A DNA stretch of 57,928 bases, filler included, from Nemertoderma westbladi (lineage: Eukaryota; Animalia; Xenacoelomorpha): NCBI GenBank assembly GCA_032718475.1. It is 3 parts of 3 records of this genome, joined end to end, with 100 filler letters (N's around TTAATTAATTAA, not from the genome) between each part and the next. Parts side by side here need not be neighbours in the genome. Positions count along the whole stretch, not along the records: positions 1 to 27,112 come from JAUCBJ010003362.1; 2 more parts are not named here. One strand, given 5' to 3'. Shown piece after piece: positions 1-47,963 of the stretch (within the stretch, counting starts at the first letter, position 1; the number at the start of each line of letters is the position of its first letter). Under the pieces are notes generated by a model. It was given only the letters and a program-made list of their open reading frames with translations. It was not told where the DNA came from and made no database searches. A program made the position numbers and the translations under genes.

Positions 1-3000
1 CTAACCCTTGTCTCCGCACTAACCCTTATCCGTCGCCCCCTTATATGGTCTCCGCACTAACCCTTATCCGTCGCCCCCTTATATGGTCTCCGCACTAACC
101 CTTATCCGTCGCCCCCTTATATGGTCTCCGCACTAACCCTTATCCGTCGCCCCCTTATATGGTCTCCGCACTAACCCTTATCCGTCGCCCGCTTATATGG
201 TCTCCGCACTAACCCTTGTCTCCGCACTAACCCTTATCCGTCGCCCGCTTATATGGTCTCCACACTAACCCTTATCCGTCGCCCGCTTATATGGTCTCCA
301 CACTAACCCTTATCCGTCGCCCGCTTATATGGTCTCCGCACTAACCCTTATCCGTCGCTCGCTTATATGGTCTCCGCACTAACCCTTATCCGTCGCCCGC
401 TTATATGGTCTCCGCACTAACCCTTATCAGTCGACCGCTTATATGGTCTCCGCACTAACCCTTATCCGTCGCCCGCTTATATGGTCTCCGCACTAACCCT
501 TATCCGTCGCCCGGTTATATGGTCTCCGCACTAACCCTTATCCGTCGCCCGCTTATATGGTCTCCGCACTAACCCTTATCCGTCGCCCGCTTATATGGTC
601 TCCGCACTAACCCTTATCCGTCGCCCGCTTATATGGTCTCCGCACTAACCCTTATCCGTCGACCGCTTATATGGTCTCCACACTAACCCTTATCCGTCGC
701 CCGCTTATGTGGTCTCCGCACTACCCCTTATCCGTCGCCCGCTTATGTGGTCTCCGCACTAACCCTTATCCGTCGTCGCCCGCTTATATGGTCTCCGCAC
801 TAACCCTTATCCGTCGCCCCCTTATATGGTCTCCGCACTAACCCTTATCCGTCGCCCCCTTATATGGTCTCCGCACTAACCCTTATCCGTCGCCCCCTTA
901 TATGGTCTCCGCACTAACCCTTATCCGTCGCCCGCTTATATGGTCTCCGCACTAACCCTTATCCGTCGTCGCCCGCTTATATGGTCTCCGCACTAACCCT
1001 TATCCGTCGCCCGCTTATATGGTCTCCGCACTAACCCTTATCCGTCGCCCGCTTATATGGTCTCCGCACTAACCCTTATCCGTCGTCGCCCGCTTATATG
1101 GTCTCCGCACTAACCCTTATCCGTCGCCCGCTTATATGGTCTCCGCACTAACCCTTATCCGTCGCCCGCTTATATGGTCTCCGCACTAACCCTTATCCGT
1201 CGCCCGCTTATATGGTCTCCGCACTAACCCTTATCCGTCGCCCCCTTATATGGTCTCCGCACTAACCCTTATCCGTCGCCCGCTTATATGGTCTCCGCAC
1301 TAACCCTTGTCTCCGCACTAACCCTTATCCGTCGCCCGCTTATATGGTCTCCGCACTAACCCTTATCCGTCGCCCGCTTATATGGTCTCCGCACTAACCC
1401 TTATCCGTCGCCCGCTTATATGGTCTCCGCACTAACCCTTATCCGTCGCCCGCTTATATGGTCTCCGCACTAACCCTTATCCGTCGCCCGCTTATATGGT
1501 CTCCGCACTAACCCTTATCCGTCGCCCGCTTATATGGTCTCCGCACTAACCCTTATCCGTCGCCCGCTTATATGGTCTCCGCACTAACCCTTATCCGTCG
1601 CCCGCTTATATGGTCTCCGCACTAACCCTTATCCGTCGCCCGCTTATATGGTCTCCGCACTAACCCTTATCCGTCGTCGCCCGCTTATATGGTCTCCGCA
1701 CTAACCCTTATCCGTCGTCGCCCGCTTATATGGTCTCCGCACTAACCCTTATCCGTCGCCCGCTTATATGGTCTCCGCACTAACCCTTATCCGTCGCCCG
1801 CTTATATGGTCTCCGCACTAACCCTTATCCGTCGTCGCCCGCTTATATGGTCTCCGCACTAACCCTTATCCGTCGCCCGCTTATATGGTCTCCGCACTAA
1901 CCCTTATCCGTCGCCCGCTTATATGGTCTCCGCACTAACCCTTATCCGTCGCCCGCTTATATGGTCTCCGCACTAACCCTTATCCGTCGTCGCCCGCTTA
2001 TATGGTCTCCGCACTAACCCTTATCCGTCGCCCGCTTATATGGTCTCCGCACTAACCCTTATCCGTCGCCCGCTTATATGGTCTCCGCACTAACCCTTAT
2101 CCGTCGCCCCCTTATATGGTCTCCGCACTAACCCTTATCCGTCGTCGCCCGCTTATATGGTCTCCGCACTAACCCTTATCCGTCGCCCGCTTATATGGTC
2201 TCCGCACTAACCCTTATCCGTCGCCCGCTTATATGGTCTCCGCACTAACCCTTATCCGTCGCCCGCTTATATGGTCTCCGCACTAACCCTTATCCGTCGC
2301 CCGCTTATATGGTCTCCGCACTAACCCTTATCCGTCGCCCGCTTATATGGTCTCCGCACTAACCCTTATCCGTCGCCCGCTTATATGGTCTCCGCACTAA
2401 CCCTTATCCGTCGCCCGCTTATATGGTCTCCGCACTAACCCTTATCCGTCGTCGCCCGCTTATATGGTCTCCGCACTAACCCTTATCCGTCGCCCCGCTT
2501 ATATGGTCTCCGCACTAACCCTTATCCGTCGCCCGCTTATATGGTCTCCGCACTAACCCTTATCCGTCGCCCGCTTATATGGTCTCCGCACTAACCCTTA
2601 TCCGTCGCCCGCTTATATGGTCTCCGCACTAACCCTTATCCGTCGCCCGCTTATATGGTCTCCGCACTAACCCTTATCCGTCGCCCGCTTATATGGTCTC
2701 CGCACTAACCCTTATCCGTCGCCCGCTTATATGGTCTCCGCACTAACCCTTATCCGTCGCCCCGCTTATATGGTCTCCGCACTAACCCTTATCCGTCGCC
2801 CGCTTATATGGTCTCCGCACTAACCCTTATCCGTCGCCCCGCTTATATGGTCTCCGCACTAACCCTTATCCGTCGCCCCCTTATATGGTCTCCGCACTAA
2901 CCCTTATCCGTCGCCCGCTTATATGGTCTCCGCACTAACCCTTATCCGTCGCCCGCTTATATGGTCTCCGCACTAACCCTTATCCGTCGCCCGCTTATAT

Positions 3001-4333
3001 GGTCTCCGCACTAACCCTTATCCGTCGCCCGCTTATATGGTCTCCGCACTAACCCTTATCCGTCGCCCGCTTATATGGTCTCCGCACTAACCCTTATCCG
3101 TCGCCCGCTTATATGGTCTCCGCACTAACCCTTATCCGTCGCCCCGCTTATATGGTCTCCGCACTAACCCTTATCCGTCGCCCGCTTATATGGTCTCCGC
3201 ACTAACCCTTATCCGTCGCCCGCTTATATGGTCTCCGCACTAACCCTTATCCGTCGCCCGCTTATATGGTCTCCGCACTAACCCTTATCCGTCGCCCCCT
3301 TATATGGTCTCCGCACTAACCCTTGTCTCCGCACTAACCCTTATCCGTCGCCCGCTTATATGGTCTCCGACACTAACCCTTATCCGTCGCCCGCTTATAT
3401 GGTCTCCGCACTAACCCTTATCCGTCGCCCGCTTATATGGTCTCCGCACTAACCCTTATCCGTCGCCCGCTTATATGGTCTCCGCACTAACCCTTATCCG
3501 TCGCCCCGCTTATATGGTCTCCGCACTAACCCTTATCCGTCGCCCGCTTATATGGTCTCCGCACTAACCCTTATCCGTCGCCCGCTTATATGGTCTCCGC
3601 ACTAACCCTTATCCGTCGCCCGCTTATATGGTCTCCGCACTAACCCTTATCCGTCGCCCCGCTTATATGGTCTCCGCACTAACCCTTATCCGTCGCCCGC
3701 TTATATGGTCTCCGCACTAACCCTTATCCGTCGCCCGCTTATATGGTCTCCGCACTACCACTAACCCTTATCCGTCGCCCGCTTATATGGTCTCCGCACT
3801 AACCCTTATCCGTCGCCCCGCTTATATGGTCTCCGCACTAACCCTTATCCGTCGCCCGCTTATATGGTCTCCGCACTAACCCTTATCCGTCGCCCGCTTA
3901 TATGGTCTCCGCACTAACCCTTATCCGTCGCCCGCTTATATGGTCTCCGCACTAACCCTTATCCGTCGCCCGCTTATATGGTCTCCGCACTAACCCTTAT
4001 CCGTCGTCGCCCGCTTATATGGTCTCCGCACTAACCCTTATCCGTCGCCCGCTTATATGGTCTCCGCACTAACCCTTATCCGTCGCCCGCTTATATGGTC
4101 TCCGCACTAACCCTTATCCGTCGTCGCCCGCTTATATGGTCTCCGCACTAACCCTTATCCGTCGCCCGCTTATATGGTCTCCGCACTAACCCTTATCCGT
4201 CGCCCGCTTATATGGTCTCCGCACTAACCCTTATCCGTCGCCCGCTTATATGGTCTCCGCACTAACCCTTATCCGTCGACCGCTTATATGGTCTCCGCAC
4301 TAACCCTTATCCGTCGCCCGCTTATATGGTCTC
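1..4333. repeat. 38-bp satellite (ctaacccttatccgtcgcccgcttatatggtctccgca), ~113 copies visible, made of exon-9 3' end plus splice donor
   Basis: Unit read directly, with minor variants (+gtc, ccc/cgc, short units). The minus-strand unit is GAGACCATATAAGCGGGCGACGGATAAGG|GTTAGTGCG, and the last copy is the coding end of the exon at 4305-4453. Confidence 0.97.
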
Positions 4334-4453
4334 TCATACGAGCTACCAATGTATCCACGTCGATGTTTGTCGTATCAATCGGTTTATATTGGCTAAGAGT
4401 TTCCGGTGGGAGTCCTGGAGACCAATCAGGCGTCAGAGTAAAAGCTCTGTAAC
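4305..4453 (-). CDS. EF-hand gene exon 9 (SYRAFTLTPDWSPG...RMRDHISGRRIR)
   Basis: Acceptor tttcctag, donor AGG|GTTAGT, phase 1 to 0; overlaps ORF 4284..4478. Confidence 0.88.
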
Positions 4454-7400
4454 CTAGGAAACAAAATATATGATGCAATCACTTGTAAGCGCCTTCTAGG
4501 GGGAAGCGCGGCGGGAATTCCCAACAATATCGCGAGTTTAAAAATTTCGCGAGTAAAAGTATCGAGTTTAAAAATATAGCGAGTAAAACATCAATGGGTA
4601 ATAATATCGCGAGCAACTAATCGATTTCTTAATAAAATTCATATTTACTTTCTGATTCCCTTTTAATGCCACCATCTTTCCATCAAAAGGCACTATATTT
4701 TAGACTATCAATACTAATATAGTATCTCTACTTAACTAATATTGAATCACAACTTAACTAAAATATTGAACAATTACTAACTTGGATCAATAGACTGTAA
4801 GAATGCAGTGTAGTTGATATTGTCAGTACCTTCGAATTCACCAAAGGCTCTACATACCAATTTAAAATCAACCAAATTAACCATAAGGCCCATAACACTG
4901 AGTACTCTACTGAACTGTAGAGGTGTTATCTTTCGTGTGTAAGCGGTGCTCTGAAAATATTAAAGCATTACATCTTATTTAAACACCCAACTAATCTATT
5001 GGTATTAATATTGTAATGTCCAGTCCATGGGGGAATCTGTATGTAGTTGGGGGGGGGGGGGGGGGGGGGGGTCTCAACAACTGGAGAATGCAAACGGCAA
5101 TGTTCCTGGCTGGCGATACGGAATAGCACGTTACATCAGTTCGGTTTTATTACAAAGAAAAGGAAAAGCTCATATTTTTAGGTAAATAAGACAAGTTAAA
5201 ATCCTCCATTTCAGGAAAATAAGTTGGAAGTTGCCTTTATTTCACTTGTACTTATCTATAATAATAATGAAATATAGTCCATCTTTATTACTGAAACGTC
5301 GAGTTTACAAATCGGTTAAAAGTTACTTTCTTTAATAAAATTCTAAATATTCTAATTACCCGATCTAAATCCTTGAATAATTGTTGCGGCATAATTCCAT
5401 GCACAATGACTTTGGTACGAAGTTCCGCCAATACCCGCTTGAGGCGCTCTATTTCGTCGGGAGATAAAGCCGGTGGCTTGGCATTCTAAAAAAAACAAGT
5501 TGTGAAAATTTATATTACAATTTAAAAATTGAAATTTGTAATGAATGAATATTTTTGAAAAAATTAAAATTTGTAAAAAATTTAAATTTGTAATAAATTT
5601 AAATTTGTAATAAATTTAAATTTGTAATAAATTTAAATTTGTAATAAATTTAAATTTGTAATAAATTTAAATTTATAATAAATTCAAATTTGTAATAAAT
5701 TAAAATTTGGAATCCTACTACTACTAGGATAGGCATGCTGCAATGCAGCTGCATTTTTAAGAATGCTGTGCCGACTTGTCGGCAAAATTGCGCCGCCACA
5801 ACTCCCTATCACCCATGACATTTGCTTGATCATCCGCATCTTCAAGGCCAGTGTTCTTTAAGATGCGTCTCAAGAAAGTCATGGGCTGTCCACCATGCTT
5901 ATTCACTCCATGAGGCTGCCAAAGTACAAGATTATGCACTGGCTGGTCCTCACGGCGAAAGAAATGTCCTGCAAAGCGGAGGCGATTTTGTTCTAGTGTC
6001 AAGCTTGGGGGAACCAATGAGACACCTCCAATGTTATATAGTGTCTGGTTCGAGATGTGTGCATTGTACTTGACACAATGAACCCGGCGTAGCATTCTTA
6101 TGAATGTGCCATCCAGAGATTTGGTGTCCTCGGCAGTTAGAGCCCAGGATGGACTTAAAAAAAGTAAAAATTTGGAATAATTTATTTTATTAGTAATTAA
6201 TTAAAATTTGTGATTATATTTAAAACTTGTGATTAATTTAAATGTATAAATTGCGTTCATTAAAATATTATTTGTAATTAATAAAATTTGATATGTAATG
6301 AATAAAAATTTAATTTATAATTTATCTAAATATTAATTCATAAAAATTTAACTTGTAATTAACAAAAATTTTAAATATGTATTTGATTAAAATTTGTGAT
6401 TAATTAAAATTTGAGATTAATTAAAATTTGAGATTAATTACAATTAGTTTTCATTAAAAATATTTTAATTCGTAACGTGGTTAATTAAAATTGTAAAATA
6501 AATTTGTCTAATAATAAATTATAGTATTATGTTCAAAACGTTCATTAATTAATTATGTTCAAAACTAATGTTAAGCAGAGGTTTTTTGTAAGGAGCCTGC
6601 GCGAACGCAAGCTCCAGCTAACACAAATTTAGCACCCGAGTTTCCTCGATTTGAGAAAATCGCAGGGGTCAACCCAAGCGGAGTGCAATGCAAGGGCCTC
6701 ACCCTGGGGGAACCGCATTCCTGATCGCGGTTAACCCCTGTGCCAGGTAAGTATGCAAGACATCCAACTTTAGACTTTAATATACCTACATTTTAAACAG
6801 ATTTTAAGTAAGGAGCGAATTTAGTATATATTAACGTATAAGTTAGAGAATAATTCTTATTTTATTTAATTTTTTTAGTTAGACAACAAATATTATATTT
6901 ATCGTAATGTAGAATTTAAACATTATTTAATTTTAAAATATCTGTACAAGTAATTATTAGCGTAATAAATCGACTCAAACGATAATAGCTACCATCAACC
7001 AACTTACTCGTGATAAAGAGCCCCTAGCAGGATTACATGGAACTGTACTTGGACGTATCTCTAACTTCGGATCCACGAATGGGTTGTCTATTTTGTTGAT
7101 TAAATCTTTGTAATGAACCCGTCCATCAGGCTGTCTGTAGAAATCCGCAATTATCTCAACATCCCCCGGCGACAAAACGGGATTCTTACCTAAAAAGTAG
7201 AGAAACTGGCATGAAATTACGTTAAACAAATCACTAATCGCTCCGATCTTTACATCCAAATGTTAAAATTACTCATTGTCTATTTTACCTTTAAACAATA
7301 TCGATTACAGAGTTACTGTGTTATTAATAAATTATTCAATTTAGGATTTAAATCACTGGGGCTGCCACTTTTACATCTGGCCTACATTATTATTTACATA

Positions 7401-10400
7401 TAGTTTAACAATTATATTAAGCTAAGATCTTTATAGCAATGTGCGCACGATGATCCAACATTAACAACCACTGTTTAACCATGGTGGTGGGAAGAACAAT
7501 CATAAATTATCAAACATTTTCTTTATATCCACATAAAAGTTCCTTATCGTTCGGGAAGGGACCACTACTGAAGAAATAGCAACGACTCGGGATCGAACCA
7601 GTGACTACCAAGCCGGATGAGTTGGGATTGCCAAAGGTTAGGTACCTTAGTATTGAGGGTATACGACCAAAAGCCGTGTATGTTTATATACATGAGTCGT
7701 TCTGAAGTCGTGGTTTTCAACCTACGACCGTAGCTAGGACCCATAGCCAATAGTAGGTCCCTGTTAAACTCTGTAACGCATCCCGAAGTAACTAACCCAT
7801 AGCCAATAGTAGGTCCCTGTTAAACTCTGTAACGCATCCAGGAGCAACTAACCCACATCCAATAGTAGGTCCCTGTTAAACTCGGTAACGCATCCCGAAG
7901 TAACTAACCCATAGCCAATAGTAGGTCCCTGTTAAACTCTGTAACGCATCCCGAAGCAACTGACCCATAGCCAATAGTAGGTCCCTGTTAAACTCGGTAA
8001 CGCATCCCGAATCAACTAACCCATAGCCAATAGTAGGTCCCTGTTAAACTCTGTAAAGCATCCCGAAGTAACTAACCCATAGCCAATAGTAGGTCCCTGT
8101 TAAACTCTGTAACGCATCCCGAAGCAACTAACCCATAGCCAATAGTAGGTCCATGTTAAACTCGGTAACGCATCCCGAAGTAACTAACCCATAGCCAATA
8201 GTAGGTCCCTGTTAAACTCGGTAACGCATCCCGAAGCAACTAATCCATAGCCAATAGTAGGTCCCTGTTAAACTCGGTAACGCATCCTGAAGTAACTAAC
8301 CCATAGCCAATAGTAGGTCCTTGTTAAACTCGGTAACGCATCCCGAAGTAACTAACCCATAGCCAATAGTAGGTCCCTGTTAAACTCGGTAACGCATCCC
8401 GAAGTAACTAACCCATAGCCAATAGTAGGTCCCTGTTAAACTCGGTAACGCATCCCGAAGTAACTAACCCATAGCCAATAGTAGGTCCCTGTTAAACTCG
8501 GTAACGCATCCCGAAGTAACTAACCCATAGCCAATAGTAGGTCCCTGTTAAACTCGGTAACGCATCCCGAAGTAACTAACCCATAGCCAATTGTAGGTCC
8601 CTGTTAAACTCTGTAACGTATCCCGAAGTAACTAACCCATAGCCAATAGTAGGTCCCTGTTAAACTCGGTAACGCATCCCGAAGCAACTAACCCATAGCC
8701 AATAGTAGGTCCCTGTTAAACTCGGTAACGCATCCCGAAGCAACTAACCCATAGCCAATAGTAGGTCCCTGTTAAACTCTGTAACGCATCCCGAAGCAAC
8801 TAACCCATAGCCAATAGTAGGTCCCTGTTAAACTCGGTAACGCATCCCGAAGCAACTAACCCATAGCCAATAGTAGGTCCCTGTTAAACTCGGTAACGCA
8901 TCCCGAAGCAACTAACCCATAGCCAATAGTAGGTCCCTGTTAAACTCGGTAACGCATCCCGAAGTAACTAACCCATAGCCAATAGTAGGTCCCTGTCACA
9001 CTCGGTAACGAATCCCGAAGCAACTAACCCATAGCCAATAGTAGGTCCCTGTTAAACTCTGTAACGCATCCAGGAGCAACTAACCCACATCCAATAGTAG
9101 GTCCCTGTTAAACTCGGTAACGCATCCCGAAGTAACTAACCCATAGCCAATAGTAGGTCCCTGTTAAACTCTGTAACGCATCCCGAAGTAACTAACCCAT
9201 AGCCAATAGTAGGTCCCTGTTAAACTCGGTAACGCATCCCGAATCAACTAACCCATAGCCAATAGTAGGTCCCTGTTAAACTCTGTAACGCATCCCGAAG
9301 TAACTAACCCATAGCCAATAGTAGGTCCCTGTTAAACTCTGTAACGCATCCCGAAGCAACTAACCCATAGCCAATAGTAGGTCCATGTTAAACTCGGTAA
9401 CGCATCCCGAAGTAACTAACCCATAGCCAATAGTAGGTCCCTGTTAAACTCGGTAACGCATCCCGAAGCAACTAATCCATAGCCAATAGTAGGTCCCTGT
9501 TAAACTCGGTAACGCATCCTGAAGTAACTAACCCATAGCCAATAGTAGGTCCCTGTTAAACTCGGTAACGCATCCCGAAGTAACTAACCCATAGCCAATA
9601 GTAGGTCCCTGTTAAACTCGGTAACGCATCCCGAAGTAACTAACCCATAGCCAATAGTAGGTCCCTGTTAAACTCGGTAACGCATCCCGAAGTAACTAAC
9701 CCATAGCCAATAGTAGGTCCCTGTTAAACTCGGTAACGCATCCCGAAGTAACTAACCCATAGCCAATAGTAGGTCCCTGTTAAACTCGGTAACGCATCCC
9801 GAAGTAACTAACCCATAGCCAATTGTAGGTCCCTGTTAAACTCTGTAACGTATCCCGAAGTAACTAACCCATAGCCAATAGTAGGTCCCTGTTAAACTCG
9901 GTAACGCATCCCGAAGCAACTAACCCATAGCCAATAGTAGGTCCCTGTTAAACTCGGTAACGCATCCCGAAGCAACTAACCCATAGCCAATAGTAGGTCC
10001 CTGTTAAACTCTGTAACGCATCCCGAAGCAACTAACCCATAGCCAATAGTAGGTCCCTGTTAAACTCGGTAACGCATCCCGAAGCAACTAACCCATAGCC
10101 AATAGTAGGTCCCTGTTAAACTCTGTAACGCATCCCGAAGCAACTAACCCATAGCCAATAGTAGGTCCATGTTATACTCTGTAACGCATCCCGAAGCAAC
10201 TAACCCATAGCCAATAGTAGGTCCCTGTTAAACTCGGTAACGCATCCCGAAGTAACTAACCCATAGCCAATAGTAGGTCCCTGTCACACTCGGTAACGAA
10301 TCCCGAAGCAACTAACCCATAGCCAATAGTAGGTCCCTGTTAAACTCTGTAACGCATCCCGAAGAAACTAACCCGTAGCCAATAGTAGGTCCCTGTTAAA

Positions 10401-13400
10401 CTTGGTAACGCATCCCGAAGTAACTAACCCATAGCTAATAGTAGGTCCCTGTTAAACTCAGAAACGCATCCCGAAGTAACTAACCCATAGCCAATAGTAG
10501 GTCCCTGTTAAACTCGGTAACGCATCCCGAAGTAACTAACCCATAGCCAATAGTAGGTCCCTGTTAAACTCGGTAACGCATCCCGAAGTAACTAACCCAT
10601 AGCCAATAGTAGGTCCCTGTTAAACTCGGTAACGCATCCGAAGCAACTAACCCATAGCCAATAGTAGGTCCCTGTTAAACTCGGTAACGCATCCCGAAGT
10701 AACTAACCCATAGCCAATAGTAGGTCCCTGTTAAACTCGGTAACGCATTCCGAAGTAACTAACCCATAGCCAATAGTATGTCCCTGTTAAACTCGGTAAC
10801 GCATCCCGAAGTAACTAACCCATAGCCAATAGTAGGTCCCAGTTAAACTCGGTAACGCATCCCGAAGTAACTAACCCATAGCCAATAGTAGGTCCCTATT
10901 AAACTCGGTAACGCATCCCGAAGTAACTAACCCATAGCCAATAGAAGGTCCCTGTTAAACTCGGTAACGCATCCCGAAGTAACTAACCCATATCCAATTG
11001 TAGGTCCCTGTTAAACTCAGTAACGCATCCCGAAGTAACTAACCCATAGCCAATAGTAGGTCCCTGTTAAATTCGGTAACGCATCCCGAAGTAACTAACC
11101 CATAGCCAATAGTAGGTCCCTGTTAAACACGGTAACGCATCCCGAAGTAACTAACACATAGCCAATAGTAGGTCCCTGTTAAACTCGGCAACGCATCCCG
11201 AAGTAACTAACCCATAGCCAATAGTAGGTCCCTGTTAAACTCGGTAACGCATCCCGAAGTAACTAACCCATAGCCAATAGTAGGTCCCTGTTAAACTCGG
11301 TAACGCATCCCGAAGTAACTAACCCATAGCCAATAGTAGGTCCCTGTTAAACTCGGTAACGCATCCGAAGCAACTAACCCATAGCCAATAGTAGGTCCCT
11401 GTTAAACTCGGTAACGCATCCCGAAGTAACTAACCCATAGCCAATAGTAGGTCCCTGTTAAACTCGGTAACGCATCCCGAAGTAACTAACCCATAGCCAA
11501 TAGTAGGTCCCTGTTAAACTCGGTAACGCATCCCGAAGTAACTAACCCATAGCCAATAGTAGGTCCCTGTTAAACTCGGTAACGCATCCCGAAGTAACTA
11601 ACCCATAGCCAATAGTAGGTCCCTGTTAAACTCGGTAACGCATCCCGAAGTAACTAACCCATAGCCAATAGTAGGTCCCTGTTAAACTCGGTAACGCATC
11701 CCGAAGTAACTAACCCATAGCCAATAGTAGGTCCCTGTTAAACTCGGTAACGCATCCCGAAGTAATTACCCCCTAGCCAATAGAAGGTCCCTGTTAAACT
11801 CGGTAACGCATCCCGAAGTAACTAACCCATAGCCAATAGTAGGTCCCTGTTAAACTCGGTAACGCATCCCGAAGTAACTAACCCATAGCCAATAGTAGGT
11901 CCCTGTTAAACTCGGTAACGCATCCCGAAGTAATTACCCCCTAGCCAATAGAAGGTCCCTGTTAAACTCTGTAACGCATCCCGAAGTAACTAACCCATAG
12001 CCAATAGAAGGTCCCTGTTAAACTCGGTAACGCATCCCGAAGTAACTAACCCATAGCCAATAGTAGGTCCCTGTTAAACTCGGTAACGCATCCCGAAGTA
12101 ACTAACCCATAGCCAATAGTAGGTCCCTGTTAAACTCGGTAACGCATCCCGAAGTAACTAACCCATAGCCAATAGAAGGTCACTGTTAAACTCGGTAACG
12201 CATCCCGTAGTAACTAACCCATAGCCAAAAGTAGGTCCCTGTTAAACTCGGTAACGCATCCCGAAGTAACTAAGCCATAGCCAATAGTAGGTCCCTGTTA
12301 AACTCGGTACCGCATCCCGAAGTAACTAACCCATAGCCAATAGTAGGTCCCTGTTAAACTCGGTAACGCATCCCGAAGTAACTATAACCCATAGCCAATA
12401 GTAGGTCCCTGTTAAACTCGGTAACGCATCCCGAAGTAACTAACCCATAGCCAATAGAAGGTCCCTGTTAAACTCGGTAACGCACCCCGAAGTAACTAAC
12501 CCATAGCCAATAGTAGGTCCGTGTTAAATTCGGTAACGCATCCCGAAGTAACTAACCCATAGCCAATAGTAGGTCCCTGTTAAACTCTGTAACGCATCCC
12601 GAAGTAACTAACACATAGCCAATAGTAGGTCCCTGTTAAACTCGGTAACGCATCCCGAAGTAACTAACCCATAGCCAATAGTAGGTCCCTGTTAAACTCG
12701 GTAACGCATCCCGAAGTAACTAACCCATAGCCAATAGAAGGTCACTGTTAAACTCGGTAACGCATCCCGTAGTAACTAACCCATAGCCAAAAGTAGGTCC
12801 CTGTTCAACTCGGTAACGCATCCCGAAGTAACTAAGCCATAGCCAATAGTAGGTCCCTGTTAAACTCGGTAACGCATCCCGAAGTAACTAACCCACAGCC
12901 AATAGAAGGTCACTGTTAAACTCGGTAACGCATCCCGTAGTAACTAACCCATAGCCAAAAGTAGGTCCCTGTTAAACTCGGTAACGCATCCCGAAGTAAC
13001 TAAGCCATAGCCAATAGTAGGTCCCTGTTAAACTCGGTAACGCATCCCGAAGTAACTATAACCCATAGCCAATAGTAGGTCCCTGTTAAACTCGGTAACG
13101 CACCCCGAAGTAACTAACCCATAGCCAATAGAAGGTCCCTGTTAAACTCGGTAACGCATCCCGAAGTAACTAACCCATAGCCAATAGTAGGTCCGTGTTA
13201 AATTCGGTAACGCATCCCGAAGTAACTAACCCATAGCCAATAGTAGGTCCCTGTTAAACTCGGTAACGCATCCCGAAGTAACTAACCCATAGCCAATAGT
13301 AGGTCCCTGTTAAACTCGCCCTCGGTGACACATCCTGTTCTCTTCTTGTCGTGATCCTTAAAATAGTCGGAACAGCGGATCCCATCAGTGTAGAACTGAT

Positions 13401-16400
13401 GCTGGAGATTGCGAATTAGTGAGTCCGCCGTTGGGGGGCGTACCGTCTGCACAGAATCGCAACGAAAACTTAGGATACCATTATTGCATCAATTCCGCAA
13501 TGGAGCAAAAAGATATAATTGTCTTACAGAAACAATTTTACAAAAATATAATATTATTTAAATTTATATATAATGTTTTTTTTAATATAGAATACAAATC
13601 TGTAAATTCACTTCTTTCTTTCACCGAAGAATATCTGTTTTTTGTACATATATATTTTTTTATTATATTTATATTATTAATATATTTTTTTTATTATTTT
13701 TATTGCCATATATATGGTATGTACATTTACATTTTTGTATATATATATATATTTATATTGGTACATATCCAAGGTTCCACCTTGGTGTAGTACTCACCCG
13801 GCTGATGATAACCAGAAGTTTGAAACCTAGGTACCGGGTTCGAGCCCCAATAGGGCCGGTTGATATTTTTCGCTATGGAGAGCATTATCATATTGTCTTA
13901 TTTACATTGAATTCACATCTCCTGTAGGTCGTGGGTTCGATCCTCACATGGGCCAGGGTAGTTTTCGTTTCGGCACGAATGCTTTAAAGGGACCAGCCAG
14001 AGCGCATCTCTGCATCCTTGCATCCTTAAGTGGTAGCTAAATGAGTACTGGAGTTGCCTCTGGGGAGTAAAGTTCTGGGGGGACCGCACTGGAAATAGTC
14101 GTCAGACTTTGTGCGTATTCCGTGGCCGAAGAAATTTTTTTATTAGTACATATTGGTATTTATTTTCAATATAATAATAACTCACCCTTTGGACCAGACA
14201 CTCACCCTTTGGACCAGACACTCACCCTTTGGACTAGACCTCCACTGACACTGATTGGACGCATTGACTGAGAGGATTCCATGTGACCAGCAGCCAACAC
14301 GTCCTCGTAGAAAGCTATGTACCGACACCTACCGGGGTGCGATGGGTTGCCATAACGACGGGCCAATAGAAACTGATCGGCTTCACCGATATCCGGGGGT
14401 CCAGGAAAACTTCTGAGAAACTGAAACAATTGCAAGTGAAATAAAGTGAAATAAAGTGAAATAACATAATTATATATAAGTATAGGTATTAGGTATTTTA
14501 GAATTGTATATTTATTTAAACTTAACTAACTATTAGGGAATAGTTCACCTGGTACAAACTAGTAAACTAATTCTTGGTTTAATGCAGAATTACAAATATT
14601 ATTCAAACATGTAAGTAACATTCACCAGAGAAGAACAAGGGGGTTAAATGAGGATTAATCTCCCTGGCTCGACCACGGATTGCACCGGCTTTTCACCAAA
14701 GAGAAAAAGGCTTTTACAGCAACTAATACTACTACTACGATCGGCATGCTGCATTGGAGCTGCATTATAAATATATTACATATATATTAAGAATGCTGTG
14801 GTCGACAACACTCCCTATCACCCATTTTATAGGAAGTTGATAAGATTGTTACTACCTATCACCCATGACATTTGCTACATCATCCGCATCTTCAAGGCCA
14901 GTGTCCTTTAAGATGCGTCTCAAGAAAGTCATGGGCTATCCACCATGCTTATTCACTCCATGAGGTCGCCAAACCACAAGATTATGCACTGGTTCGTCCT
15001 CACGGCGAAAGCAATGTCCTGCAAAGCGGAGGCGGTACCGTTCAAGTGTCAAGCTAGGGGAGACTAATAGAACACCTCCCATACTGTATAGTCTGATTGG
15101 AGACATGTGCATTGCACTTGACACAATGAACCCGGCGCAGCATTCTTGTGAATGTGCCATCCAGAGATATGGAATCCTCTGCAGTTAAACTGATATGTAC
15201 GGTACACTGATATGTAACTGAGATCACAGCTTCGTAACCATCTACGCGAGTATTCATTCACTCCGTTGTTGTATGTTGTTTATAAGAGCTACCTTTTTAT
15301 CAAACTGAGAAAAACCCATATGTTCCAGCCAAAATGTCATCACACTAAATAGTAACTTGAAAATCATCTGTTTAAAGGGAGCTAACCCATTATTAGAGTA
15401 ATTAAAGAATCTCCCCGCAGTCACTTTTGTGGACTTCAAGAAGGCATTCGACTCCATCCATAGAGGTAAAATGCTTGAAACCCTAAGAGCTTATGGAATA
15501 CCAGAAGTAATTGTTGCTGGCATTGGATTGTTATATTGTGACACAGAAGCGCAGGTACTCTCACCAGATGGTGAAACTGAGTTTTTCTCAATCCTGGCTG
15601 GCGTACTGCAAGGTGACACATTAGCACCATTACTATTTGTAATTGTGCTGGATTACGCAATGAGGACGGCCACAAAGGGTGAAGATCTGGGATTCACACT
15701 TCAAGAACGCAGAAGTAGTAGATATCCGGCAACTACAGTCACAGACACCGACTTTGCGGATGACATCGCCCTGCTCTCTAATACGCTAGCAGATGCACAG
15801 CTTCTACTAAATAAAGTGGAGAGGGCTACTAAGGAGGTTGGATTGCATATAAATGCTACAAAGACCGAATTCATGACCTTTAATGTTGATGGAAACTTGA
15901 CAACCATTGATAATAATCAACTAAGGAAGGTCGATGACTTCCAGTACCTTGGATCATGGATAGAGAGTAGCAAAAAGGACATAGAAGTTAGGAAAGCAAA
16001 GGCTTGGGTAGCTCTATCAAAAATGGATACCATCTGGAAATCAGATCTCTCCAGGCACCTGAAGACTGAGTTCTTTCGAGCCACAGTGGAAAGTGTATTT
16101 TTATACGGGGGTGAGACCTGGACACTGACTAAATCACTTGAACAACGAATTGATGGTTGCTACACAAGACTACTAAGGGCAGCCCTAAACATCAGCTGGA
16201 GACAACACATGACAAACGCCGAGCTTTATGGTACAATACCACCTGTATCAACCACCCTCCGTGAACGCAGATTAAGATTCAGTGGGCACTGCTGGCGAAG
16301 CAAAGACGAGGTCATACCAGATCTACAGTACTTCTCTGGCAACCAACTCATGGAAAGCGTAGTCGTGGACGACCTGCCATAACATATATAGATCAACTTG

Positions 16401-19400
16401 AAAGGGATACTGAACTTGGGAGAAACGAAATTGCGACAACTATGGAGAATCGGGAAGCCTGGAAGGATCTTATTTCCACTGTCCGAGTTCGCCTCACCTA
16501 GCAGTAGTAGTATCCTCTCCAGGGGAAATCGGACGCAAATAACAGGTGATTGCTCTCAAAAATAAAACTGTAACCTTTTCTGTTCTTAACATTGAGGCGG
16601 GATATTAATTCGCCAAGGCGAGTTTTGCGTCCAGTGCCCCCCCCCCCCTGTCTCTTTATCTGATATAACATTAACATACAGTATATACCGGTACATGTAA
16701 TCTTTGGTATAATTGTTTGTTTATTCATATAGATTATGGAAGAGTCTGAAGTACTGAAGTAGGCCGGAAGGCCGAAACGTTACTCAACTAACACCGAGTT
16801 TTTTCATTGTCAGCGGTTTATTTTATCAAAATGTTGAATTGTGCAGTTGGATTTATCATTAGAACAATTCCTCCGTTACCATTGCTGTCATCTGCTAGGG
16901 GAGGGCAAGTCGCCAACTACTGTACAACCAATGACCTTAATCAAAACCTCTACTTTCTGCCCAGTTGTGCCCACATAAACCTGTCTACCAGGGCTGTCAG
17001 CTCGCCTTGTTACGGACTCTGCGTTCACAGAGAGGGGTTGATACTGGTTGTATTGTACAATAAAGCTCGGCGTCTGTATGTCATGTGTTGTCTGTCTCCA
17101 GCTGATAATCAGTCTTGTGTAACAAATATATAATTTTGTCCAAATTCTATCCAATCCTGTCCTATCCAATCCTGTCCTATCCAATCCTGTCCTATCCAAT
17201 CCTGTCCTATCCAATCCTGTCCTATCCAATCCTGTCCTATCCAATGACTGGAAAGGCACGTCCATTGATTGGACTTGTTTCGTTGCTGCAGACGAACTTA
17301 TTTTAAGCCCTCAGGTAATTATTATAAATTAGGAAACATTTGAACATTTACCACGATTTCTGGTCCAGATAGAATTATTATTCCCTGATTCCAGGCAAAA
17401 TCTGTTATAGCGATAATTGAAGCGAGGCGGGATATTGCAATAGTGTGCAATCAGTACAGACAGTAAGTAGTGTTGGGATGTAATACAATTAAGTAGTTAG
17501 TGAAGGTAGACTGTTCCCCCCGACCTGGTACAATGCGAGGCCTTTAATTAGCGACCATTTAATCAACAGTCTCTCCAAATACAGTAGAACCATATTGCGA
17601 CTACGGAGCCCTGCAAAGGAATGGTGTTTGGACTCCTTATGTGGCGGATAATAAAGAGCTAACATGTTTGTAGCAGTTTCTTATTTTTTTCCTTCGAAAA
17701 ATGGTCTTATTTATGCTTCGAAAATACTTGAAATGGTTAGAATTATGGCAAGGGCTACTGACTGGACCCTTTGCTCAATTGACCGGACAAAGCCGCCTCC
17801 GCTTTGCTGGACATTACTTTCCCGTGAGGACCAGCCAGTGCATAATCTTATGCTTAGGCGGCCTTGTGGGGTGAATAAGCATGGTGGACAGCCTATGACT
17901 TTCTTGAGACGCATCTTAAAGGACACTGGCCTTGAAGATGCGGATGATCTAGCAAATGTCATGGGTGATAGGGAGTTATGGCGGCGCAATAATGTTGACA
18001 CGCCGGCATACTACTACTGCCATAAATAATCGAACCTTAGGTTCCGAGTAATTCTATGGAACTTCCAAATCCTGGACAGACGAATTAACGCTACCCATGC
18101 CCAAAGGGAAAGGGGCTTTATCAGCAAGCTAAGCTAGAGTGTTGTAATGTTAACCACGAGAATGAATAGGCGCAGTAAATAGGTTTGTCTAAAAGTAGGC
18201 CTATTTGGTAACTGCGCGTAACTGAATTTATTTAATTAATTAATTTTTATTAAAATTAAATTTATAAAAAATAAACTAACCTGTGGCAATGTAACAAGAC
18301 CTTCATTGTTTTTATCAAAATCTTTGTAGGAATCTTGGACGTTAATTCCATGGAATTTACAATATTGGTAAACTCTGTGCAATATCGACTCCACTCTCGT
18401 TGTTTCAGGTTGGTTTAGGACGGCACGATGCCACGCGTGTTCGCTAAAATTGAGAAATTACAGTAGATCGAATGAATTCGCAACCAAACGTTTAAGAAGT
18501 TTGGACGGGAAAATGATTGTGTTACCGGTACCGCGATATTCAGCACTGCGTACAGTAATTCAGCTCAAAAAGAACTGCAAAATTTTCTTTCATTTCCCAA
18601 TTGTATATCTTCAATAACATTACCGGCACTTATTATAGATAGTTTGTTGAATCAATCCATTTCGAATTCTTGCATGGAATATTTTAATTATAACTCACTA
18701 TTGTTATTGTTTTCACATTGTTATTATTTCACTCAAGTGGGATGTGGGATGATTAATAATAATAATAACACTCACATGTGGCCGGGATATTGAGTGCCAT
18801 CTAGCGTAGCTTCTAAGAATTTATAATTAAATAATCCGTTTCCTCGAGTATCATATTTTTTTAGAATCTCAGATGCATCTTGAGCGGTAAGCGATATTTT
18901 CAGATGCTGATTAATAATTCGCAGAAATTGATTACCTAAATAATATTAATAATTACAGATTTATATTTAATTAATCAAGCAATTTAAGAAAAACCTTGAC
19001 TCTAAAACTAGTAACCGTGCGTGACCCAGACATCGCATACAATATTAGTACCGGTAAATCAGTAGACTGCAGATAGCAAATCTGTAGGTTAGGAGCGAAA
19101 ACTAAAAATCATCTGTCTGCCGTCAACTGAAAGTGCACTATTAGGTACCGGTACTATATACTCAGACCACGCAGGTGGAACCACATTATTTAATACATAC
19201 ATAACATTATTGGATGGCTCGGTTATTATATTCTGGTTATTAGGTTCGTTTTTTATTCATTAGAACTTATGGCTGATACAAAACAAGTGTTCATTTAATT
19301 ATTATTTGTTATTATTTTAGATAATAAAAGTAAACATATATCTAAATAATCCTAATAATTTACAGTAAATTTATTTTAGAATATTATATTAATTATCTGT

Positions 19401-20037
19401 AATTAATATGTTCTAGATTTTTGTCTTCAGATAATTGTAGTTACATGCCGTTACATGGGTCCGTTTCATTAGAAAATACAACTATTTTACGGGTCATAGA
19501 CCTTAATCACATTTATAATTGTCAGTATTTTATATTTTAACTTTAACTTTATAATTTTATATGTTAACAGTTGTTAACATAAAAACACAAAATATAACTA
19601 AATACGCTATTATTCATAAAAAAGCGCACTTTATAGCGTTTCGGCACGAGTGATGTTGTTTTCCGAGCGACAGCGAGGTAAATTACAAAACGAGGGCCGT
19701 AATAACTATTTACATCATTGTGTGCAAAGCAGCACTTTGCATCACTTATGACCTGAGTTTATTTATGTTCCGAGCGAGCGAAGCGAGGGAGGTTTACATA
19801 AATAAACAAGGGTCTTTAACGCTGAAAAGTGACTTTTGCACGCAATGATGTATATACTTTAGTTACAATGCGGTTTACCAACTACTGTAGGGCCCCTTCA
19901 CTTGGAGTATTTTTTTTACCTGAGATGAAACCCGATTTCAATCGGTCAAAATCCTTGAAAAAATCATTTATTCGCACACGTTTAGCGCTGATGGCCACGC
20001 GTATGATGTCTTCAATGCGATTATCTAAACTAGGCAT
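4305..20037 (-). CDS. Uncharacterised multi-EF-hand protein gene, 9 exons (19920-20037, 18776-18935, 18281-18443, 14226-14420, 13287-13446, 7008-7189, 5360-5485, 4782-4950, 4305-4453), 3'-incomplete in window
   Basis: All exons are bounded by AG/GT. Intron phases 1,2,0,0,1,0,0,1,0 join without stops from MPSLDNRIEDIIR... EF-hand-like loops recur: FKDFDRLKSGFIS, YKDFDKNNEGLVT, FKDHDKKRTGCVT, FKDLDRSTAYTRKIT. Confidence 0.9.
4782..4950 (-). CDS. EF-hand gene exon 8 (STAYTRKITPLQFSRVL...INYTAFLQSIDP)
   Basis: Acceptor ttttcag, donor CAA|GTTAGT, open frame with EF-hand-like NINYTAF. Confidence 0.88.
5360..5485 (-). CDS. EF-hand gene exon 7 (NAKPPALSPDEIERLKRVL...FKDLDR)
   Basis: Acceptor ttttag, donor CGG|GTAATT, 126 nt, phase 0-0. 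Confidence 0.88.
5575..5710. repeat. 17-bp AT-rich minisatellite (tttaaatttgtaataaa) ~7 copies
   Basis: Direct tandem repeat. Confidence 0.85.
5715..6155 (-). mobile_element. 5'-truncated RTE retrotransposon copy (family A)
   Basis: Nearly identical to the 3' end of 53431..54885 (RLRFAGH...ELWRR), with a (TAG)n tail. aaaatttggaat occurs on both flanks and may be a TSD. Confidence 0.9.
6591..6754 (-). ncRNA. U1: U1 spliceosomal snRNA
   Basis: 164 nt starting ATACTTACCTGG. SL-I loop GATCAGGAAT, SL-II loop ATTGCACTCC, Sm site AATTTGTG, terminal stem GGAGCTTGCG-TTCG-CGCAGGCTCC. All stems pair. Confidence 0.96.
7008..7189 (-). CDS. EF-hand gene exon 6 (GKNPVLSPGDVEIIADFY...GSLSR)
   Basis: Acceptor ttttag, donor CGA|GTAAGT; DGRVHYKDL EF-hand-like segment; lies within ORF 6975..7259. 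Confidence 0.88.
7740..13317. repeat. 56-bp satellite (cccatagccaatagtaggtccctgttaaactcggtaacgcatcccgaagtaactaa), ~100 copies, made of exon-5 3' end plus splice donor
   Basis: Period 56 confirmed (840 bp = 15 units between 8341 and 9181). The terminal copy is the coding end of exon 5. Confidence 0.97.
13287..13446 (-). CDS. EF-hand gene exon 5 (TVRPPTADSLIRNLQHQFYTDGIRCSDYFKDHDKKRTGCVTEGEFNRDLLLAM)
   Basis: Acceptor gtgcag, donor TGG|GTTAGT, EF-hand-like loop; absent from the ORF track. Confidence 0.9.
13775..14110 (+). mobile_element. Degenerate tRNA-derived SINE fragment(s)
   Basis: Pol III B-box-like GGTTCGAGCCC (~13837) and GGTTCGATCC (~13934), followed by CATCCTT...TAAATGAGTAC...CTGGGG..TAAAG, which resembles the Nin/Deu SINE central domain. 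Confidence 0.5.
14180..14239. repeat. 20-bp x3 tandem repeat of exon-4 end plus donor (GTCTGGTCCAAAGG|GTGAGT on minus)
   Basis: ctcaccctttggac at 14181, 14201 and 14221. Confidence 0.95.
14226..14420 (-). CDS. EF-hand gene exon 4 (FLRSFPGPPDIGEADQFLLARRY...GLVQR)
   Basis: Acceptor tttcag, donor AGG|GTGAGT, 195 nt, phase 0-0. Confidence 0.88.
14727..15188 (-). mobile_element. Degenerate 5'-truncated RTE copy (family A)
   Basis: RLRFAGHCFRRED... similarity to the 53431 element; (TAG)n tail. Confidence 0.85.
15400..16511 (+). mobile_element. 5'-truncated RTE retrotransposon (family B), partial RT ORF 15429..16382 with 3' frameshift
   Basis: DFKKAFDS, GVLQGDTLAP, DFADD, FQYLGS, RLRFSGH motifs; tail tagcagtagtagta. 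Confidence 0.92.
16512..16652 (-). mobile_element. Partial copy of the MITE at 56358-56626
   Basis: Reverse-complement match, e.g. cattgaggcgggatattaattcgccaaggcg and ttgcgtccag. Confidence 0.75.
16742..16785 (+). ncRNA. Degenerate minimal type-I hammerhead ribozyme motif (Penelope-like)
   Basis: GAGT-CTGAAG(tactgaag)TA-GGCC-GGAA-GGCC-GAAACGTT-ACTC: stem I, stem II, GAAA and palindromic AACGTT. The core has an 8-bp duplication and A9->U. Confidence 0.55.
17146..17244. repeat. 15-bp minisatellite (cctatccaatcctgt) ~6.5 copies
   Basis: Direct tandem repeat. Confidence 0.93.
17790..18018 (+). mobile_element. RTE family A 3' fragment
   Basis: REDQPVHNL...GDRELWRR identity to the 53431 element. 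Confidence 0.85.
18281..18443 (-). CDS. EF-hand gene exon 3 (EHAWHRAVL...YKDFDKNNEGLVTLPQ)
   Basis: Acceptor ttttag, donor CAG|GTTAGT, EF-hand loop. Confidence 0.9.
18776..18935 (-). CDS. EF-hand gene exon 2 (NQFLRIINQHL...YDTRGNGLFNYK)
   Basis: Acceptor tttag, donor CAT|GTGAGT. Confidence 0.88.
19920..20037 (-). CDS. EF-hand gene exon 1 (MPSLDNRIEDIIRVAISAKRVRINDFFKDFDRLKSGFIS)
   Basis: aagATG start, donor CAG|GTAAAA. Confidence 0.88.
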
Positions 20038-24924: not shown

Positions 24925-25701
24925 TCATGGGTCGTCAATCTTTGGGGCCAAATAGAAACGAATTGACCCCATATCTTCGATCTTATACTCGACCACCAAA
25001 GGGATATCTTTACTCATAGATATGGAGACGGATGGAGACAGCGGAGTCGCCTTGGTGAAGTTGTTGAGAAAACGGACGGCGAAGTTAAGACGAACTGGTT
25101 CCTCCATCTGTATAGTAACTTGGTCTTCCTCTTTATCTATGTTAGTGTTCTGCATTATGTTAATCTTGCCGGAACCCAGATCACCCTCGGCTGCGAACTG
25201 TACCGACTCTTTGGTGCAGGTAATGGTGACTGAATCGCCGATCTGTGCGAGATCTCGGCAAATACGAGCGAACTCTGCCGACGGCATCCTAATAGTGGCG
25301 CTGTAGTCCGTAGTTGGGATACCCAAGTGTTCCGTGTCAAGGTCCATCAACTTTATCTCATACTGACTGATCTTGTCTTGTTTTTTGGACTCGAAGGTGA
25401 AGTTAACCAAGTCGCTGTTCTCCTCGCATTGAATCAGGAGGGAGTCGTCGTTACCTCCGCATTTTAGAATCTTCGCTAAATTGGTTAAGTTGATACCGAG
25501 AGCGAGGTTCCGATCGCATCGGTAGGGATCGAAGCCCTCCGCCCGCATGCTGACTGCTACTAAGGACACGTGGCTGCTGTCCATAGACTGAAGAGAGACA
25601 CCCGCCGCCGAACAATCAAACTTTCCATCCGTAACTAAATCCTTTATGGAATCGATTACCTTTTTAAAGGTTGATGCGTTTGCTAACTGTGCCTCGAACA
25701 T
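24925..25701 (-). CDS. PCNA: Proliferating cell nuclear antigen, intronless, 258 aa
   Basis: MFEAQL..., LQSMDSSHVSLV, YRCDRN, K164-equivalent in CTKES, FYLAPKI. The ATG is at 25701; the ORF track starts two codons early at GTG. Confidence 0.98.
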   Translation of the reverse strand: MFEAQLANASTFKKVIDSIKDLVTDGKFDCSAAGVSLQSMDSSHVSLVAVSMRAEGFDPYRCDRNLALGINLTNLAKILKCGGNDDSLLIQCEENSDLVNFTFESKKQDKISQYEIKLMDLDTEHLGIPTTDYSATIRMPSAEFARICRDLAQIGDSVTITCTKESVQFAAEGDLGSGKINIMQNTNIDKEEDQVTIQMEEPVRLNFAVRFLNNFTKATPLSPSVSISMSKDIPLVVEYKIEDMGSIRFYLAPKIDDP

Positions 25702-27112: not shown

Positions 27113-27212
27113 NNNNNNNNNNNNNNNNNNNNNNNNNNNNNNNNNNNNNNNNNNNNTTAATTAATTAANNNNNNNNNNNNNNNNNNNNNNNNNNNNNNNN
27201 NNNNNNNNNNNN
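27113..27212. other. Assembly gap with TTAATTAATTAA linker
   Basis: N-run with a central six-frame stop linker. Confidence 0.97.
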
Positions 27213-27514
27213 ATATTATTAATTACTGTATATTCTTATTTTAATATACGTATCTATTAATATTCATATTTTGAGATTGCGATCACCTTAATTAGGCGTA
27301 CTGTATTGAATTGTCTTAGGGTGTAATTGATGTAATTGCATTGGTAGACAATTTAGGATAGTGACAATGACAATTAATTAGAGTAGGAAATATTTTGTTG
27401 TGACTTAGGAAGACTGTGAAGTTAATATGAAATGTTCGAACTGCAGGAAAAGTGTAAGCAGAGGAGCCAGTACCACAAAATACAGTATGAGTATACAATA
27501 CAGAAGCTCAAACC

Positions 27515-27919
27515 TACGGAAGCCCATAACGGCCATGTCAAGCGCAAACTTCCATGTCAAGCGCGCAAACTTTATGCCATTTCCGTGTAGAAACATTTGC
27601 GCGCGCAACATGGAAGTTTGCACGCGCGACATGGAAGTTTGAGCGCGCGACATGGAAGTTTGCGCGCGCGACATGGAAGTTTGCGCGCGTGACATGGAAC
27701 TGTGGAAGTTTGCGCGCGCGACATGGAAGTTTGCGTGCGCGACATGGAAGTTTGCGCGCACGGCATGGAACTGTGGAAGTTTGCGCGCTCGACATGGAAG
27801 TTTGCGCGCGAGACATGGCAGTTCGCGCGCGCAAACTTCCATGTCGCGCGCGCAAATGTTTATACACGGAAATGGCATAAAGTTTGCGCGGGGTGACATG
27901 GCCGTTATGGGCTTCCGTA
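27515..27919. mobile_element. MITE with long TIRs and internal 21-bp tandem repeats
   Basis: TACGGAAGCCCATAACGGCCATGTCA ... TGACATGGCCGTTATGGGCTTCCGTA with TA at both ends; internal (acatggaagtttgcgcgcgcg)n. Confidence 0.9.
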
Positions 27920-28305
27920 CAAACCATTCCATCCATAGACGAATCATAATGAAATATCAATAGATAAGCTAAACCTGGTCGTTTAGAAGGTCTCAGCACA
28001 CCGCCGCGCCGCCTCGCCTCCTTTACAAGCCACATTGCGCTCGTCCTGCCATGTGGTATTTTTAACGGAAGAAAACTAAATGCTTTTAAAGTTACCGCAA
28101 CCATGGGATGGAAATTAATTAAAATAATTGACAATAATGTTGAGAATCCGTGTAAAGATGACAAACATGCCGCCATGTATAACAAACTGCAGTATGGTCT
28201 CATAATGATCACAACAGTTCAAAACAGACTCCCGCTAGAGGGCTAGAAGTCTGAAACATCTCACATTTTATTTTTTGAAATTTTGATCCGTTCAATCTGA
28301 GACTT

Positions 28306-29844: not shown

Positions 29845-30261
29845 TTATGAATCCTCGTCGTTTTCTAGATTAATATTATCACCGAATTTCGCATAGAGTT
29901 GTACTTTGAGTTGAGAAAGGAGAGTTCTAATCTCGGAATTTTCATTTTCAAAAACTAGCAATTCATCTCTTAGGATCTGCTGTTTTCCTTCTAGTTGCTC
30001 TTTTGCTTTTTCGAAAGGTAATTTAAGGAAAACTTCCCCTATTTGGAACGGGCAATATCCGCTATCATCTGTAAGCTCAAGTTCTTCAATGTTTTCCCTG
30101 GCGTCTTCCATGTTCTCTAAAAGTTTCTTCCGTGCCGTAATTTCATCGGATATTTCGTTTAGACGACTATTTTTCGATGCGAATAAATTAATTTTATCTT
30201 GATCTTCCTTATTCACAGTTACTGAGTCAGAATTACCGGTAGTGGTAGCAACCTTCATCAT
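29845..30261 (-). CDS. PFDN4: Prefoldin subunit 4, intronless
   Basis: V..EDQDKINLFA, PFQIGEVF and LKVQLYAKFGDNINLE signatures. Confidence 0.96.
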   Translation of the reverse strand: MMKVATTTGNSDSVTVNKEDQDKINLFASKNSRLNEISDEITARKKLLENMEDARENIEELELTDDSGYCPFQIGEVFLKLPFEKAKEQLEGKQQILRDELLVFENENSEIRTLLSQLKVQLYAKFGDNINLENDEDS

Positions 30262-34505: not shown

Positions 34506-35005
34506 AACAATATTTTATGGTGACCCATGAGACCAACAATATTTTATGGTGACCCATGAGACCAACAATATTTTATGGTGACCCATGAGACCAACAATAT
34601 TTTATGGTGACCCATGAGACCAACAATATTTTATGGTGACCCATGAGACCAACAATATGTTATGGTGACCCATGAGACCAACAATATTTTATGGTGACCC
34701 ATGAGACCAACAATATTTTATGGTGACCCATGAGACCAACAATATTTTATGGTGACCCATGAGACCAACAATATTTTATGGTGACCCATGAGACCAACAA
34801 TATTTTATGGTGACCCATGAGACCAACAATATGTTATGGTGACCCATGAGACCAACAATATTTTATGGTGACCCATGAGACCAACAATATTTTATGGTGA
34901 CCCATGAGACCAACAATATTTTATGGTGACCCATGAGACCAACAATATTTTATGGTGACCCATGAGACCAACAATATTTTATGGTGACCCATGAGACCAA
35001 CAATA
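34506..35005. repeat. 29-bp minisatellite (aacaatattttatggtgacccatgagacc) ~17 copies
   Basis: Near-perfect direct repeats. Confidence 0.96.
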
Positions 35006-38229: not shown

Positions 38230-38407
38230 CTGCAACAAATGAATAGGAAAGGTTAAATAATGGGCAATTGTAGGCAAACTCGTGAATAAGATAAACTAGA
38301 TAATATGTTTAATTTTGGTACATATCATTAATAATCTCTCATTTTGGGAGGATCAAAGCTATACTGAATGTCTTGTCTACTGGTGCAATATCGATGGTGA
38401 CACGTCT

Positions 38408-47848: not shown

Positions 47849-47963
47849 CTATGGAAAATAAATTCATATTATAAGATAAAAGGCGTTCATTGTCCTGCCC
47901 ACAAATCAGTTATTTATCAATCGTTCAATGCATTTTTATATCTCACAAATAGCACCATTCATA

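Follow-up and report, generated by a model that had tools for sequence, protein, structure and literature searches.

Minisatellites whose first unit spans the junction between an exon and its donor have been described in the human genes F7, CBS, LMNB2, PDGF and 6-16, where the most upstream donor wins (PMC1557585); they include a 37-bp variable number tandem repeat in intron 7 of F7, and the CBS and PDGF cases lie in introns 13 and 4, respectively. In amphioxus, repeats termed 'mirages' are reported at Adh3, the globin genes BflGb6 and BflGb9, troponin C and PGBD5, and PMC3087553 and PMC3902484 place them at both 5' and 3' exon boundaries, with units of 10-160 bp and unaffected splicing. In PMC10078293, the passages covered hold nothing on an architecture that straddles exon and donor, and the literature covered, from which most subscription papers lay outside the scope, yielded no genome-wide test of the enrichment of such arrays at donors. 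Here, we describe a stretch of 57,928 nucleotides (hereafter, the window) from Nemertoderma westbladi (assembly GCA_032718475.1), in which three of nine donors of a CFAP115-like gene head tandem arrays. A first-pass annotation of this DNA did not know the arrangement as a described system, but the same arrangement has been published for the human genes and the amphioxus mirages; the locus is a new case of an already known repeat type that is unusual in degree, with three arrays in one gene, two of them of about 100 copies, and with mostly exonic units.

The gene occupies the minus strand of the first 20 kb of the window, and all nine donor 9-mers that the first-pass annotation had read were located there in the same order. 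Joined in frame, the nine coding exons (e1-e9) give 474 aa with zero stops. In the lines below, the lower coordinate is the last exon base, a slash marks the exon/intron junction, and X4 is an RNA run discussed thereafter; for e2, e3, e7 and e8, the entries rest on its spliced contig and on a shuffle-controlled copy scan.

19920..20037, minus strand: e1, coding part, with ATG at 20037; donor CAG/GTAAAA, no array; the transcript match extends to 20102.
18776..18935, minus strand: e2; donor CAT/GTGAGT, no array.
18281..18443, minus strand: e3; donor CAG/GTTAGT, no array.
14226..14420, minus strand: e4; donor AGG/GTGAGT, the first of three copies, is used; X4 joints 14420/18281 and 13446/14226.
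13287..13446, minus strand: e5; donor TGG/GTTAGT, first copy used; the X4 piece 13285-13446 is record positions 968-1129.
7008..7189, minus strand: e6; donor CGA/GTAAGT, no array; starts at X4 record position 1130.
5360..5485, minus strand: e7; donor CGG/GTAATT, no array.
4782..4950, minus strand: e8; donor CAA/GTTAGT, no array.
4305..4453, minus strand: e9; donor AGG/GTTAGT, first copy used; ends within the fifth CFAP115 repeat, judging from repeat spacing.

The arrays found at e4, e5 and e9 by Tandem Repeats Finder are the following.

14180..14239, minus strand: 20-nt unit, 3.0 copies, at e4; 14 exon nt and 6 intron nt; 2 spare donors.
7739..13318, minus strand: 56-nt unit, 99.6 copies, at e5; 45 exon-derived nt and 11 intron nt; 85 exact spare donors.
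1..4333, minus strand: 38-nt unit, about 113 copies, at e9; 29 exon nt and 9 intron nt; 112 exact spare donors; truncated by the window start.

The claim that only e4, e5 and e9 head arrays, of 3, about 100 and at least 113 copies, is borne out by these results and by a 20-nt best-match scan with shuffled controls, in which copies of the three donors matched at 19-20 of 20 positions, above all 200 shuffles, while no copies of the other six donors or of the eight acceptors were found. Including the real donor, the exact 9-mer occurs 3 times (e4), 86 times (e5) and 113 times (e9), which leaves 2+85+112 = 199 exact spare donors in the window, with variants that keep the GT coming on top; since the e9 array runs past the window edge, the earlier figure of over 200 decoy donors is fair. 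The donor is kept by both later units of the 20-mer, by 85 of the 98 later units of the 56-mer (91 of 98 when only GT is required) and by 107 of 111 units of the 38-mer when the array is split into units, or 112 by direct count. The shared architecture of exon end, donor and short intron tail proposed earlier holds in all three arrays, with the refinements that the intron part measures 6, 11 and 9 nt and that the exon-derived part of the 56-mer is a diverged, substituted copy with a 6-nt deletion, reaching more upstream exon sequence.

Host assignment was made by similarity: e1 and e5 match CFAP115 with E values of 1.5e-24 and 1.7e-17 (solved structures PDB 8g2z, 8g3d and 9e78; E summed over repeats), from which the gene is classed as CFAP115-like. 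CFAP115, or FAP115, is an EF-hand ciliary protein of 918-979 aa with eight repeats about 120 aa apart, a size that fits the 3133-nt spliced contig described below, whereas the window holds 474 aa only. In contrast to e1 and e5, neither e4 nor e9 by itself had a significant match in a PDB sequence search; a homologue search with e4 found zero, and a Pfam scan of the nine exons gave nothing at the curated cut-off and two weak EF-hand hints. For runs X7 (85% likeness) and X6 (90%) from other organisms, the tables contained repeat-derived pieces only and no exon pieces. The gene is incomplete in the window, as 266 nt of the X4 contig precede the e1 match and 1378 nt follow e9; with this further exon sequence lying beyond the examined part, three of nine is a partial count of the gene's donors.

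The RNA evidence consists of assembled contigs of runs X4 and X5, from which rare isoforms drop out, so that minor use of downstream donors would be invisible in them. One 3133-nt contig of run X4 joins e1-e9 in frame across all eight junctions, and the exon boundaries assumed by the first-pass annotation are thus right. Besides the two joints listed with e4, it has 18931/19916 (cut +4), 18443/18776, 5485/7008, 4950/5360 and 4449/4778 (cut +4), all of these listed joints being CT..AC on the plus strand; X5 likewise shows the three e6-e9 joints. The first, most upstream donor is used at all three arrays in X4 (14226, 13287 and 4305). Since e5 and e6 are contiguous in the X4 record, there is no room for additional 56-nt units, while at e9 the match halts at 4303, two bases beyond the first donor, and the array sequence compared reached 4268, in the second donor region; for e5 and e9, the comparison of donor use covered the next one or two donors within the compared stretches. 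Use of donor 2 or 3 would bring a premature stop at all three arrays. The main mRNA is spliced normally, as in mirages. As a separate observation on this gene, the pyrimidine tract of the e4 acceptor holds a 10-nt repeat of three copies (14434-14464), which lies 14 nt upstream of the acceptor and excludes the AG.

The arrays also have support from assembled DNA reads. Unitig ends at 4304 (X2), 13289 and 14205 (X1) and 14209 (X2) fall exactly where 31-mers become repeated, and the summed depth beside the 56-mer at e5 reaches 312 and 289 against 22-27 in two DNA runs from two studies, although one of these runs may be the source sample and summed contig depth is not copy number. The fit is poorer for one X2 contig, which ends at 7744 where 7767 was predicted, and for the compared part of the 38-mer array, whose depth in X2 is only about 3 times that of its flank. 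The existence of the arrays is secure; their copy numbers, which come from the assembly, are not.

The inner structure of the arrays points to turnover. A block of about 22 units is repeated in the 56-mer array, in which the last donor is degenerate, and the 38-mer array includes variant units of 18, 39 and 41 nt. In addition, at 14235 (X2 and X4) and at 13330 (X4) the coding copy has the same letter as the intron units, a pattern compatible with exchange between the units and the coding copy or with their descent from it. An X2 unitig starts at 14185, its exon bearing the intron letter, versus 14205 in X1 and the window (a third X2 difference was not displayed); this hints at another order of the units, or at a fourth copy, in X2, and the e4 20-mer may be polymorphic in length or order. 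As regards a possible G-quadruplex, G-triplets lie 10-22 nt apart within the units by inspection, and by eye no breakpoint microhomology is evident at the e4 junction. A telomeric origin was considered for the two units that contain GGGTTAG and was dropped, because the e4 unit has no such heptamer, other parts of the window contain it 5 times and, beyond e9, the transcript runs on.

Three defining features of a mirage are found here: a head-to-tail unit spanning the boundary in three of three arrays, a splice signal in many but not all units, and a normal main mRNA. Concerted turnover and a diverged end unit are shared as well, and the units of 20, 56 and 38 nt lie within the 10-72 bp range of Adh3, for which somatic instability is also reported. 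Mirages occupy both boundaries, whereas here only donors are affected (3/9, against 0/8 acceptors), and BflGb6 has 3-6 copies, whereas two arrays here have about 100 copies over 4-6 kb. The likeness to F7 is that the first unit crosses the exon/donor junction, identical pseudo-donors follow and the most upstream donor is used, as it is in three of three cases here. The F7 unit, however, has 4 exon and 33 intron nt in 5-9 copies, while the present units are mostly exon (14/20, 45/56 and 29/38) in far more copies, and three arrays sit in one gene. In CBS and 6-16, two pseudo-sites are reported to be also used, a minor use that the contigs of the CFAP115-like gene cannot show.

Whether the donors are hit more often than chance would allow was estimated from the repeat loci of period at least 10, of which there are 35 in the window (58 kb) and 14 in the gene. 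The chance of one donor lying in a seed unit is 1.7-2.4%, and the probability of at least three of nine is 1.0e-3 at the gene's repeat density and 3.7e-4 at the window's, or 1e-4 when only loci with GC of at least 35% are counted. An excess at donors, as the first-pass annotation had expected, is therefore present locally, in a window picked after the fact from a very large scan; these P values are uncorrected for that selection, and all tests are post hoc and concern nine exons. The rule that amplified donors read GG/GT(T/G)AGT stands as a pattern only: 3 of 84 donor triples are as tight, 5 of 84 can be separated by fixed positions and 33 of 84 by some pattern, and the rule coincides with the exon ends richest in G and in GC, as measured without the donor itself, so that composition predicts the three at least as well as the motif. 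Between exon positions -45 and -4, e4, e5 and e9 have G counts of 11, 13 and 14 versus 4-9 in the others, and GC counts of 21, 22 and 21 versus 12-20, both ranking 1 of 84. For other window sizes, the ranks were 3 (G) and 5 (GC) at -20 to -4.

Three independent exon-end and donor minisatellites of the mirage or F7 type, of which the first donor is used, probably arose here by G/C-rich seeding and persist as tolerated by-products rather than as a device. The genome would make short tandem duplications often, and those of high fidelity would tend to arise in G/C-rich sequence; in the CFAP115-like gene, such seeds may be the exon ends adjoining AT-rich introns (GC is 44% in exons and 36% in introns). 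A duplication within coding sequence would be purged unless in frame; the present unit lengths of 20, 56 and 38 nt are not multiples of 3, and all three internal repeats of an 819-aa open reading frame (ORF) elsewhere in the window are in frame (periods 51, 33 and 15/30). Because the most upstream donor is chosen, all extra copies of a donor-straddling unit would land in the intron, and any slip to a later donor would meet a premature stop. Freed from selection, the intronic unit may expand and turn over by unequal exchange, sometimes including the coding copy, and the GG/GT motif would be a by-product of G-richness with no targeting signal.

Several observations weigh against this account. 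Survival alone predicts a background rate at donors and no excess, so that the donor excess (P 1e-3 to 1e-4) must come from the G/C-seeding step. That step rests on nine exons and several window sizes tried, among them -30 to -4, where, of the 84 triples, this one ranks only 17 for GC and 4 for G. The three array donors are also among the weakest in Watson-Crick matches to the U1 consensus, with 7, 6 and 6 while the remaining six donors have 7-9 (2 of 84 triples are as weak), and alone have no C at -3. Units end 6, 11 and 9 nt past the exon edge, and this nearness of the donor to the unit end (P 0.008, exact; 0.03, Fisher) is equally predicted by a donor-coupled process. Moreover, two other large arrays of the window (31648-33332, mixed 48/63-nt units over 1.7 kb; 34506-35010, 29 nt in 17.4 copies) have no linkable exon, the contig-based RNA evidence drops rare isoforms as said, and the mutational origin of mirages is called unclear in PMC3087553.

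Such a donor-coupled process, the idea of the first-pass annotation, is an unlikely alternative: pausing during transcription, an R-loop formed at the 5' splice site on the G-rich non-template strand, or nascent RNA bound there by U1 would yield duplications ending just past the donor. It would account for three of nine donors being hit where about 2% is expected for each, for the unamplified acceptors and for the short intron parts, and the sense strand is G-skewed at all three seeds (0.33-0.44). However, three of nine donors against none of eight acceptors is non-significant (Fisher P 0.21), G/C seeding predicts the same mostly exonic units, and the case is a single gene chosen post hoc. An acceptor-side mirage is published for BflGb6 (PMC3087553), and amplified acceptors are not predicted by a process specific to U1 or 5' splice sites; the F7 unit, with its few exon and many intron nucleotides (PMC1557585), likewise argues that, in general, both the side and the breakpoint can vary. 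A wider proposal, that duplications in this lineage arise by preference at 5' splice sites which are rich in G and pair weakly with U1, and that their downstream breakpoints lie 6-11 nt inside the intron, approximately the reach of U1, is equally unlikely.

Pure coincidence, meaning that repeats were seeded at random, unbiased by composition or splicing, and came to notice through a very large scan, appears decidedly unlikely, even though a probability of about 4e-4 to 1e-3 per nine-donor gene would leave many such genes among some 250,000 windows and the motif fit is as modest as stated. It sits poorly with the composition rank of 1 of 84, with donors heading two of the four large arrays of high identity in the window, and with the recurrence of the architecture across lineages in the literature. 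Selection for the arrays is very unlikely. Weak donors can benefit from U1 binding and G-runs downstream of them, so that extra downstream donors and G-triplets might aid U1 recruitment at the weak donors found here, and in the e9 array the 18-nt units, shortened by deletion, retain the donor. Yet donor positions within units are not conserved, as they account for 8 of the 45 substitution types of the 56-mer and for 1 of the 8 of the 38-mer, which is what their share of positions predicts (P 0.69 each); donor-killing variants (GT to CT or AT) are copied inside the 56-mer array, an enhancer needs no hundred copies, and the weak-donor ranking is post hoc. Finally, an origin of the arrays, or of their size, in assembly error is extremely unlikely, given the exactly matching unitig ends, the depth beside the 56-mer in both DNA runs and variant units recurring in ordered blocks, although the support is contig-level and includes the misplaced X2 end and the low 38-mer depth.

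The window as a whole is made of three joined pieces with N-gaps at 27113-27212 and 47964-48063, each having a central 12-nt spacer with a stop in all frames, and neighbours across a gap may not adjoin. Fragments of a single, very abundant LINE-like retroelement with a TAG-repeat tail, which we take to be RTE-like, lie in the CFAP115 introns and elsewhere, with a summed contig depth of 1e5-1e6 in the DNA runs. The genome is either rich in G-tracts or the runs reflect a sequencing artefact, as 58 kb contain 14 runs, 10-27 nt long, of G alone or C alone; X2 contigs are cut at 5036-5081, around the run at 5049. The 819-aa ORF probably forms the final exon of a CDK-like kinase with an upstream exon near 47.6-47.9 kb, and a LINE lies inside an apparent intron of a kinase gene. 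The remaining features are as follows.

About 5715-6155, 14720-16510, 17790-18020, 38420-38750, 48550-48720 and 53400-54890: LINE-like fragments.
5049, 16637, 20310, 21364, 23486, 26380, 33384, 33864, 35619, 38894, 49968, 49991, 56371 and 56674: G/C runs.
24928-25701, minus strand: intronless PCNA, in a genome that also has ordinary multi-exon genes; its best identity among the 120 listed of 337 hits is 64%, as for a divergent animal.
27503-27920: long inverted ends with an internal 21-nt array, resembling a miniature inverted-repeat transposable element in appearance.
29845-30273, minus strand: short ORF, presumably prefoldin-like.
35793-38252, minus strand: the 819-aa low-complexity ORF (56% GC), with in-frame tandem repeats of 17, 11 and 5 aa.
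About 47581-47850, minus strand: probable upstream exon of the CDK-like kinase.
39781-44091, plus strand: the LINE, which is nearly complete, with two ORFs of 310 aa and 1013 aa that apparently encode endonuclease and reverse transcriptase; a tail of short repeats lies at 44506.
45313-46497, plus strand: intronless ORF that we assume to be actin-related.

With about 200 spare donors and correct splicing in a conserved ciliary gene, the locus offers a natural test of the rule that the first donor wins, with roughly 10 times as many copies as in F7 and in a non-mammalian animal. Should the short intron tails and a bias towards G-rich or weak donors prove to be genome-wide, splicing would shape where minisatellites arise. 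Moreover, if donor-coupled birth were true, co-transcriptional donor recognition would be a direct source of minisatellites, and this would give the unexplained mirages a mechanism.

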